Origin: Chrysomallon squamiferum
Lineage: Eukaryota; Animalia; Mollusca
Length of the DNA: 64,000 nt
Reading direction: 5' to 3'
Assembly (NCBI GenBank): GCA_012295275.1
Contig: CM022665.1
Coordinates: forward strand, 25,606,001-25,670,000
Made by a program: the position numbers and the translations under genes. Positions 8,301 to 11,300 of the stretch are shown here, piece by piece. A model generated the notes under the pieces. It made no database searches and had not been told where the DNA came from. It worked only from the letters and a program-made list of their open reading frames with translations. Numbering within the stretch: position 1 is the stretch's first letter; each line of letters starts with the position of its first letter.

Positions 8301-11300
8301 ATGTAGATAAACAAGAACAACTGATGACTTTTGTCATGTAAATTAGCAAATGAAACATGTAAGCAGAAATGATGTTTTAAACTCATGAACACCCCCCCCC
8401 CCACTGCCATAATACAAGCAAAATAAACATCACAGTTTAACAGTTCACAATGACACACTACCACATGGACCAATTATTTATTATTTTCCTACAGATGAAA
8501 CATATAGAAAGCAACTCTATTGTCATAAGTATATTTAACTTTTTCCATTTTTTTTTTCTTTTTCTTTTTGTTAAATCAGGTAATCTTATTAAACATTTTA
8601 ATAACACAAATGGACAAACAGTAAAATGTAAAATAATTAACCAAAACTGGGATGTTTACAAATGCTGTACATTTAAATCAAACAAAAATAAGGTTTAAAA
8701 AGTTTATTTTAATGTTTTTAATGTTAAAAACCTAATTGTAAATTCTAAAAATGCACACGTTTATTTAAATTAAAATACAGCTCTTCATTTAAGCTAATTG
8801 TTAATATTAACAATGATTACAGACTGAATGGAAAATAAAATTTGCTTAAGCAGCTGCAAGTTATTTACTTGACACTGAATTAGTTTGTTTATCACATAAT
8901 TTTTGTACACAATGAACCATGCTGCCCATTCAGTGTATAGGTATATATATACATATACAAGAAAAACAAGTTTTATGTATATTTAGTAATATATAAATAT
9001 GTACTGTCTCTGCACAAAAAGAATAGTATTTGCATATTTAAACATCCCAGCCTTAGTATTATGATGACATGAAAAATATTAAAAGCATTTTGTTTCCTTA
9101 ACTACAAAAATATTATAAATATTAAAACTTGAAAATACATATATTATACAAATGAATTTTAAAAAATAATAGAGATAAATCAAATACATATGAAACACAA
9201 CTTGCAAATAACTATATAATCAATCAACAATGAACTAGTGATAATATAAATTTATATAAAAATAAAAAATGGAACACACATAAGAAAATCCCTACACATT
9301 ATTTTGTCAGATGAATAAAAACTTGCCATCAGCTGCATAAACAATGATAACATGGTACTAATAAACTGAGCAAGAAGATTAGTTATGAAATGTGAAAACA
9401 GGAATATCAAACAGAACATCCTCTGAAGTAAATGTACCAAGGAACAGCTTGTTTACAGTTTCTGTGGTATTTATTAACAAACATTTTGTTAAATGCTCTG
9501 CAGTACTTATTGTTTTGGTACAGATATCCAGTATTTATTACTTTGGTATTATTATTATTATTATATAATTTTTTTGTCCAGTTTTTATGACGGTTTCATG
9601 ATTATGTGTAACAAAATGAAATAATCTGAATGATGAGTTGTCTGAATGAACAACATGTATAACAAACCAAAGGAAACAAACATCAATGACACCACAAACA
9701 TGCCATCGCTCACCTGGGCATGATACAGGCTGAGGCTGCGTGCCTTATGCAGCGGAATCAGCACTTTGGTCAGAAACTGCTTGTGCTCAATCTTAAGAGG
9801 TAATGCAAATCCGTTGATAATGCTGAAAATGAGATTTCAAAATGTAGTGCAAAGAAGCATGCTAACATACCTGCGCATGAAACAGACTGAGGCTTTTGGC
9901 CTTGTGAAGAGGAATGAGCACTTTGAGGAGAAACTTGCGATGCTCTGCTTTCAGAGGTAAAGCGAACCCATTGATAATGCTGAAATTTAGTAGGTATTCA
10001 AGATTATAGTATATTTTATGAATACATTGTTGTTGTTTTTGTAACCATGCGGCATCCTAATGTGAGGCATGCAGAGTTCCTCGCCAGGATCAGGTGTTAA
10101 AATGGGACAAGAATTAGTTGGGTTAAAAAGTAAAAAGGATTAGCTAATTTTTTATTATCTATTAATATCTAAGTCAGAATCGATCCTATAGCCATTATCC
10201 CATCTAAAGCTTTGAAAATATAAAATAAAAATATTAATTTACTGACTGACCCGTTATAAACTAAACAACAGAGAGGGCAAAAACTACAAGTTTACTATCA
10301 AAAGAGATTTCAAATAAGTGTGAATTAAATTTAAATTCTGTACATTATTTATACACTGAAGGAATAAAATATATCAAAAGGAGTTTTGATTTTTTTCATT
10401 GTCATGAGGCTAAAATATTTCAATTCAACATTCTGAAATGCAGAAATAAATTCTGGCATCTGATATCTGATAATATTTAACAATACATTTAAAATAAAAT
10501 AATAAAAAAAATAAAATAAAAATTCACTCCTCAAATAACTTTCTTTATTTCCATCCTTACTAGCTGATTATATGTATGATCTTCCATTGAAACACTATGA
10601 TTCAGAAAGCATATCAAAATGGATACGAGTCTTTTATACATAACCACTTCAACATGATTAACAATGTATTGTTTAGCACTTATTAATACCTGTGACAATA
10701 TTTTGCATTAAACAATGCATCAGTTATTTTATATTTCCTATTTCTACATAGACAACCTCAATCACTTTAATGAAATAATAATTATAGTTTGTGCTCTATT
10801 TACAGTCAGTCATTTCATTATTTTAAAGAAATACTATACTAAAATGGTGAAATAATAATACTGTTATTAAAACTGCATTTCAAAACTGAAAAAAAACAAA
10901 AACAAAAACCAACAAAAAAAACCACATAAAATAATACAAAATGATGACTTAACAGCACGTATGTATGCAAATAAATAACATCTGATACGAAAGTTTTAAG
11001 TAAATAAAATGATTTGAAAAAGTATTAATCAATATTCAAAAAAGTAATTAAAAAAACCAAAAAACATTCTACTTCATTTCAAACTAAATTTAATTTTTAA
11101 AAATCTGTGATAAACTTAACACATATATATATATACATAGTATATACATATAAATATAGATTTATATTTAAATTGACAAAAGAAAATCTGAATTGATGAA
11201 GCAAAACCCTAGACCAGCCATCCATTTAAAAACAAAAAAGCCAAACAAACACCACCATTTTATACTTGAAGCTTTTATATTGTCTTAATAAGATATTTTA

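Follow-up and report, generated by a model that had tools for sequence, protein, structure and literature searches.

In OGDH (exons 4a/4b), PKM (exons 9/10) and MAPK14, as in the locus described here, two homologous exons of equal length and identical phase lie in one gene, one of them is used at a time (probably so in the present case), and the choice changes a small part of a conserved domain. In C. elegans, passages of a survey (PMC4165533) describe egl-15 (exons 5B/5A) and let-2 (exons 9/10) as mutually exclusive, with short introns of under 40 nt, and RBFOX is reported to control exons 7a/7b of unc-32 in worm neurons (PMC3585155). Duplicated exons giving variant enzymes are also reported from molluscs, namely in coq-2 (PMC7434440) and oyster AOX (PMC5589949). 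The B56 regulatory subunits of protein phosphatase PP2A are likewise known to give several proteins from one gene: the B56gamma1-3 C-termini and a mixed B56delta/gamma isoform with alternative first exons are described in a passage of PMC2257934. Their core has been treated as fixed, and variety has been attributed to paralogues and terminal exons.

Here we analyse a molluscan B56 gene that carries a tandem pair of homologous core exons, 7A and 7B. Altogether, we consider it reasonably probable that the pair is spliced in a mutually exclusive manner, with 7B as major and 7A as minor form in two RNA runs, that 7A is restricted to some cell types, and that its use changes an outer helix surface of the protein, as predicted from a model, and not the LxxIxE pocket.

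The exon pair and its host gene

The window, that is the whole stretch of 64,000 nucleotides that was analysed, contains a B56 gene of which the pair is coding exon 7. The features are as follows.

5396..27295, minus strand: host gene, with about 12 coding exons located by tblastn using B56 proteins of molluscs; it encodes a PP2A B56 regulatory subunit of the alpha/epsilon type
11949..12008, minus strand: exon 6, upstream constitutive exon, 60 nt; a loose end of the 7B contigs maps here
9871..9979, minus strand: exon 7A, upstream copy, 109 nt, minor form, with A11, R14, K15, L18, K28 and F33
9823..9870, minus strand: spacer intron between 7A and 7B, 48 nt, GT-AG
9714..9822, minus strand: exon 7B, the major form, 109 nt and downstream of 7A; RNA runs X8 and X9 link it with exons 6 and 8
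7700..7753, minus strand: exon 8, downstream constitutive exon, 54 nt, single copy; loose ends of 7A and 7B at 7727-7753

Both copies have AG acceptors, GT donors, the same phase and one open frame. They are identical at 81 of 109 nt and at 30 of 36 residues, and 15 of these 30 shared residues are encoded by different synonymous codons. The six replacements (7A/7B) are A/I11, R/K14, K/Q15, L/T18, K/R28 and F/Y33. Our recount agrees with the first-pass annotation of this DNA, which had described two 109-nt homologous exons with intact splice sites, identical phase and open frames, and had correctly named 11949 and 7753 as the flanking junction positions. The 48-nt intron between the copies went unmentioned there. 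Being adjacent and homologous, of like length and phase and with intact splice sites, the two exons form a real pair. Each scored above the Pfam cut-off for B56 (PF01603, profile positions 207-242), and they correspond to residues 231-266 of human B56gamma. Scanning 5000-27600 revealed neither a third copy of exon 7 nor a second copy of exons 6, 8 or 9; the pair scored 182 and 157 in the exon-7 scan, and the next best stretch 14.

Leaving out exon A and one merged hit, the window and the nearest RefSeq protein, P0134, have 286 of 307 residues in common; for limpet proteins the figure is 302 of 347. By these matches the source resembles a gastropod. P0134 is presumably a Gigantopelta aegis protein. 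The 7B peptide is identical to that of two limpet proteins and of P0134 (exact matches in P0124, P0127 and P0134). The model of the homologue P0124 matches the structures 8uwb and 6nts at 81-82% identity (B56 HEAT-like fold); its identity is 81-82% to human epsilon and alpha, and 74-76% to gamma.

Other genes were recognised in the window.

37809-41660, plus strand: ZW10 gene pieces (Pfam Zw10_middle and ZW10_C2)
45376-45627, plus strand: v-SNARE exon (Pfam V-SNARE_C), presumably Vti1-like
49807-56314, minus strand: gene with a GBP-like GTPase and FYVE fingers (Pfam), which we take to be ZFYVE1/DFCP1-like
60176-63815, plus strand: acidic, serine-rich exons, assumed to resemble RTF1; a Pfam search of the piece tested gave no match above cut-off

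Age and conservation of the two copies

Between 7A and 7B, dS is 1.83 and dN 0.146, giving a dN/dS of 0.08 (Nei-Gojobori; Fisher p 3e-7). These values bear out the proposal that the duplication is old and that both copies are under purifying selection.

The region was then compared with two other organisms, B and C, in each of which a single contig spans both exons and the spacer.

9694..9995, minus strand: conserved block that includes the spacer and the two exons; identity to organisms B and C is about 96.5%

Differences within this block amount to 10 of 302 nt in run X13 and 11 of 303 nt in run X15 (organisms B and C). Positions were readable for 5 of the 10 and 6 of the 11, respectively, the remainder lying near the block ends. 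The contigs stop aligning about 16-20 nt outside the exons, and the flanks fail 80% alignment. Three of the listed changes fall in 7A, two in 7B and one in the spacer, and all five exonic ones are synonymous third positions. For the three changes in 7A alone, the probability of such an outcome is about 0.012. Moreover, the six A-specific codons lie in the readable zone of X13 and X15 and show no replacement there. The spacer, with one listed change in 48 nt in X13 and X15, is nearly invariant and as conserved as the exons; part of the conservation of 7A may be due to constraint at the RNA level.

It is practically certain that the second copy is neither an assembly or haplotype artefact nor a decaying pseudoexon. 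Nothing speaks for such an origin beyond a missing junction between exon 6 and 7A (see below). Seven runs of organism A, from six samples and three studies, contain 0.77-1.00 of 47 sampled words of 9600-10100, and the share is 0.94-1.00 in X2, X5 and X6, which are not among the three runs marked as possible sources. The 28 of 109 nt that differ between the copies do so mostly silently, and the occurrence of one contig over both exons in each of two other organisms refutes an artefact. The earlier dismissal of an artefact or pseudoexon is thus upheld by the word support in several runs and by the contigs of organisms B and C.

The exact 7A peptide was present in none of 286 fetched proteins. 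Neither this peptide nor the upstream peptide of a second pair-bearing locus, L066 (described below), appeared in protein searches or in cluster look-ups, for which 15 of the 67 members of the main mollusc cluster were listed. Read-through into a second copy was flagged in none of 84 intron-containing fragments. Five proteins with two exon-7 segments each (P0001-P0005) were rejected as duplicated or fused models that do not represent the 7A/7B pair. K28 and F33, as in 7A, occur in one Littorina protein and one unnamed protein; these were not counted as 7A because similar sequences seem to lack an intron before exon 7. In five gastropod-like sequences (P0020, P0026, P0055, P0078 and P0105), exons 6 and 7 are continuous and read into the intron after exon 7. 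These five suggest that the intron 6 position was lost in some gastropods.

Use of the two copies in RNA

Four of the 20 listed runs were aligned (X8, X9, X13 and X15). RNA evidence comes from two of them, X8 and X9, both from organism A and from one study, whose contigs were aligned to 9600-10100 and whose junctions were read from loose contig ends on that stretch. Exon 7B was covered at a depth of about 31 and 7A, on a separate contig in both runs, at about 5.5; such contigs drop rare paths and measure level poorly, and these figures show presence only. In both runs, the loose ends of 7B match the last part of exon 6 on one side and the first part of exon 8 on the other. In X8, the 7A donor is joined to exon 8 and 7B is skipped, and in X9 the 7A contig ends exactly at the donor. 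The contigs of X8 and X9 contained neither an A-to-B joint nor any cover of the spacer. On their 5' side, the 7A contigs of both runs show no splice and cover the upstream intron as far as the aligned stretch reaches. Mutually exclusive splicing, as first proposed, called for four junctions: three were recovered from these contigs, and the fourth, from exon 6 to 7A (11949>9979), was found in neither X8 nor X9.

The reading frames 6-A-8 and 6-B-8 are open, and 6-A-B-8, 6-8 and retention of the spacer all run into stop codons. Altogether, the pair is likely spliced in a mutually exclusive manner, with 7B as the major and 7A as the minor form; full-length use of 7A is putative.

An intronic contig in X8 has a depth of 4.1, close to the 5.5 of 7A; therefore unspliced RNA or DNA is present at a level similar to that of 7A. 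The 7A contigs extend 100 and 94 letters beyond the aligned stretch and may end near 10195-10200 if collinear. Their upstream end could be a splicing intermediate, a drop of coverage in AT-rich sequence or an internal start.

The course of these contigs raises the question of whether 7A enters full-length coding mRNA at all. It might instead act as a conserved regulatory decoy, or form the 3' portion of a transcript in which intron 6 is retained or which begins inside that intron, and so lower B56 output. We regard this as unlikely, though not negligible. The 7A contigs of X8 and X9, which go 5' into the intron, never join exon 6 and may end near one place, would fit such a role, as would a spacer conserved without coding and the lack of the 7A peptide among the fetched proteins. 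However, the frame of 7A and 30 of its 36 residues were retained as synonymous sites came close to saturation, and its listed changes in the relatives are all silent, as given above. The open stretch upstream of 7A has no in-frame ATG; an internal start would therefore neither translate 7A nor explain constraint at the protein level. Moreover, a partly spliced intermediate, or a low-depth junction lost in contig building, would give the same picture.

The spacer and its GCAUG motifs

A passage of PMC7969005 gives a threshold of about 50 nt, counted from the 5' splice site up to the branch point. The whole spacer measures 48 nt, so that A and B likely cannot be joined: it would probably be too short to be spliced out, and joining would be excluded sterically. 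We infer this exclusion only, because C. elegans splices introns of about 40 nt (PMC4165533).

Several GCAUG motifs lie around the pair.

10046..10073, minus strand: two GCAUG (one UGCAUG), 71 and 93 nt upstream of 7A
9858..9862, minus strand: GCAUG at nt 9-13 of the spacer, as in the spacer of L066; a candidate site for RBFOX
9699..9703, minus strand: another candidate site for RBFOX, with GCAUG occupying nt 11-15 past the donor of 7B; in the aligned block of X13/X15, in the end zone where changes are not listed

The spacer motif is unchanged in X13 and X15. The four motifs occur in 248 intronic nt, none farther than 100 nt from the pair, where the remainder of the gene would lead one to expect 0.2 (Poisson P 6e-5; the value is post hoc, since the motif was chosen after viewing the sequence). 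A donor followed by GCATG was found twice in the window, at the 7A and 7B donors, and 3 of 100 shuffles reached two. L066 has only two GCATG in 4325 nt, one of them at the same spacer position, and in none of 11 single-copy loci does a GCATG occur in the 60 nt that follow the donor.

RBFOX, which recognises GCAUG, usually promotes use of an exon when bound downstream of it and represses the exon when bound upstream (PMC11874969). An RBFOX-type protein on the spacer motif, which is downstream of A and upstream of B, would activate A and silence B, with nerve or muscle as the probable setting; we put this somewhat below an even chance. We take A as the form favoured in cells rich in RBFOX, since it is the spacer site that recurs in the mussel-like locus. 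Under this position rule, the other three motifs (two upstream of A, one downstream of B) fit the opposite direction and favour B. The four sites thus point both ways, and the candidate control could be A-on or B-on.

We also searched for RNA structures. Among 282 inverted repeats in 7500-12200, the 25 longest were of low complexity or away from the pair, and homologous flanks were few. No Rfam family matched in 7400-12300.

Predicted effect on the B56 protein

The contacts to BubR1 that this exon provides are I231, G234, A236, K240 and H243 in B56gamma numbering, and K240A or H243A raises the Kd from 2.9 to 28 or 80 micromolar, according to parts of PMC4930772. The exon supplies the Lys and His of the LxxIxE pocket, as the first-pass annotation had stated. 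Its further claim, that the pair rewires the substrate-docking region, is unsupported: all five published contacts are identical in 7A and 7B. The copies differ at gamma 241, 244, 245, 248, 258 and 263, none of which is named in the interface description of PMC4930772, as far as the part consulted goes.

In the AlphaFold model of P0124, a homologue of the B type, exon positions 11-21 form one helix. On a helical wheel, positions 11, 14, 15 and 18 centre at 10 degrees and H13 lies at 220 degrees; the four centre about 200 degrees from H13, F16, L17 and V20. In this model, four of the six differences are thus inferred to lie on a helix face away from the pocket. Positions 11, 15 and 18 are among the most variable of the family, with 13, 8 and 6 residue types in 108 peptides. 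Five of the six 7A residues are common in the family, and K15 occurs in 1 of 108 distinct peptides. The F/Y difference had been read as an echo of the paralogues. Human alpha and epsilon indeed carry FHAQ and gamma YHPQ, but the analogy is weak, as 86 of 108 distinct exon-7 peptides, most invertebrate ones included, have Y.

The same pocket with a different outer stripe is thus expected for the A form, with the geometry taken from a model. It would differ from B at 28 and 33 and along the stripe 11, 14, 15 and 18, where it gains one positive charge; this would alter a partner, the localisation or a holoenzyme contact and leave LxxIxE binding much as in B. We give this about an even chance. Residues 256-258 of B56gamma are assumed to lie near the scaffold and the catalytic tail. 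Literature searches found no published work on K244, or on Val257 with Tyr307.

The two forms might instead differ mainly in affinity for LxxIxE substrates, which we hold to be quite unlikely. It is true that the exon encodes five published contacts, that K240A and H243A weaken binding (PMC4930772, in part), and that three of the differences are within five residues of contacts. R/K14 could border the basic pocket, and a long-range effect of charge on the pocket is possible: the extra basic residue of A could act on the acidic or phosphorylated residues that follow the motif. Nevertheless, the contacts themselves do not differ, the highly variable positions 11, 15 and 18 face away from H13, and BubR1 is bound by all human paralogues, although their residues at these positions vary (same source). 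A change of the outer surface therefore remains our preferred prediction.

An exon-7 pair in a mussel-like locus and a possible exon-8 pair in oysters

A metagenome scan covered 22 of 64 parts and gave 537 confirmed stretches, the best 80 of which were taken. A donor directly follows exon 7 in 12 of these best 80 loci, and only one of them, L066, has two exon-7 copies. In L003, L006 and L007, where both neighbouring exons are in view, exon 7 is single.

L066:3087-3353: tandem exon-7 pair on a mussel-like contig; each exon has 109 nt and AG/GT ends, the spacer 49 nt

L066 is closest to a mussel-type protein. Its copies are alike at 101 of 109 nt (93%; dS 0.14, dN 0.06), and match either window copy at only 72-79 of 109 nt. 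Just before the acceptor, 15 of 16 nt agree between them, but no similarity extends beyond these or past the donor. As in the window, GCAUG occupies nt 9-13 of the spacer, and the alignment of the two spacers beats that of 4942 of 5000 shuffles. At position 26, the upstream copy carries I, which was seen in none of the 108 other peptides. After the second copy, L066:3354-3480 holds two partial repeats of the 3' end of the exon, each with a GT donor. The Hydra isoform P0136 and the fragment P0007 contain partial repeats of exon 7 too.

The first-pass annotation had predicted that 7A and 7B form clades across species. These clades were not found. In the best tree (12 rows, 108 columns) the copies group by species, weakly and with no starred branch, and the AU test did not reject position-wise clades (p 0.14 and 0.12).

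Oysters have a different arrangement. In two species, protein pairs of equal length (P0129/P0132 and P0225/P0207) differ only at the same three exon-8 residues. They suggest a parallel, conserved mutually exclusive pair at exon 8, known from proteins only.

The snail and mussel pairs may have arisen independently, instead of deriving from one ancient duplication that was homogenised by gene conversion in the mussel line. We place independent origin just short of even. It is favoured by the tree and by the closeness of the L066 copies to each other, by the presence of a pair in only 1 of the best 80 loci, by the readiness of the region to duplicate (oyster exon-8 pairs, partial repeats of L066) and by the several other gastropod-like sequences that appear to lack an intron before exon 7. 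Against it stand the spacers, of 48 and 49 nt, with GCAUG at the same place and an alignment that few shuffles equal. In addition, the 15 of 16 nt before the L066 acceptor are better explained by conversion within an older pair than by a new duplication of 158 nt, in both lineages it is the downstream copy that is similar to the annotated protein, and the AU test is compatible with position-wise clades. An old pair with conversion fits these data; independent origin is about as likely.

Discussion

These results bear on how B56 diversity is generated. Variants that differ at six core residues (in the window) or three (in oysters) are ready-made probes of B56 surfaces beyond the LxxIxE pocket that set partner choice, although the effect on the protein is probably subtle. 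The snail and mussel pairs together offer a clean test of old duplication with conversion versus repeated origin. Beyond the pair itself, the analysis adds the spacer common to the mussel-like locus and the oyster exon-8 pairs.

A wider scenario can be drawn, which as a whole we consider doubtful. The pair would predate the split of snails and mussels; its spacer and RBFOX site would have been kept for hundreds of millions of years, conversion resetting the exons, and oysters would have a parallel exon-8 switch. Molluscs would thereby retune PP2A targeting by cell type within the core of a single gene, and the helix surface concerned would be a B56 partner site so far undescribed; vertebrates rely on separate paralogues instead.

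The first-pass annotation knew of no such pair in B56 genes. Our literature searches, made in full text and judged by titles and abstract openings, agree: a pair of B56 core exons was undescribed there, with most subscription papers, bioRxiv supplements and the Drosophila catalogue outside their scope. PPP2R5 genes are absent from the supplements of two human catalogues (PMC8373072 and PMC5740500), in which OGDH and MAPK14 are present as controls. The words "pptr" and "phosphatase" do not appear in the main text of the C. elegans survey (PMC4165533). Isoforms of this kind may already be present in automated annotation, which seems to include them for oysters.

The duplicated exons of mollusc coq-2 are reportedly named 6a/6e. 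They and those of oyster AOX belong to different genes, and the coq-2 swap reportedly changes substrate choice (PMC7434440). In OGDH, exclusion is enforced by a short distance from the 5' splice site to the branch point (passage of PMC7969005); here the whole spacer is 48 nt. The C. elegans genes egl-15, let-2 and unc-32 share with the B56 pair a very short spacer, UGCAUG-type elements and nonsense-mediated decay as a backup (parts of PMC4165533 and PMC3585155). In the worm genes, however, the spacer is shorter than 40 nt and tests of the regulators have been made, whereas the regulation of the B56 pair, with its 48 nt, is inferred. Within the family itself, the known variants change N- or C-terminal tails and leave the core identical (PMC2257934, in part), whereas 7A and 7B swap 36 core residues. 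Tandem duplicated mutually exclusive exons are well catalogued; what appears to be new is a probable pair of this kind in a B56 gene.
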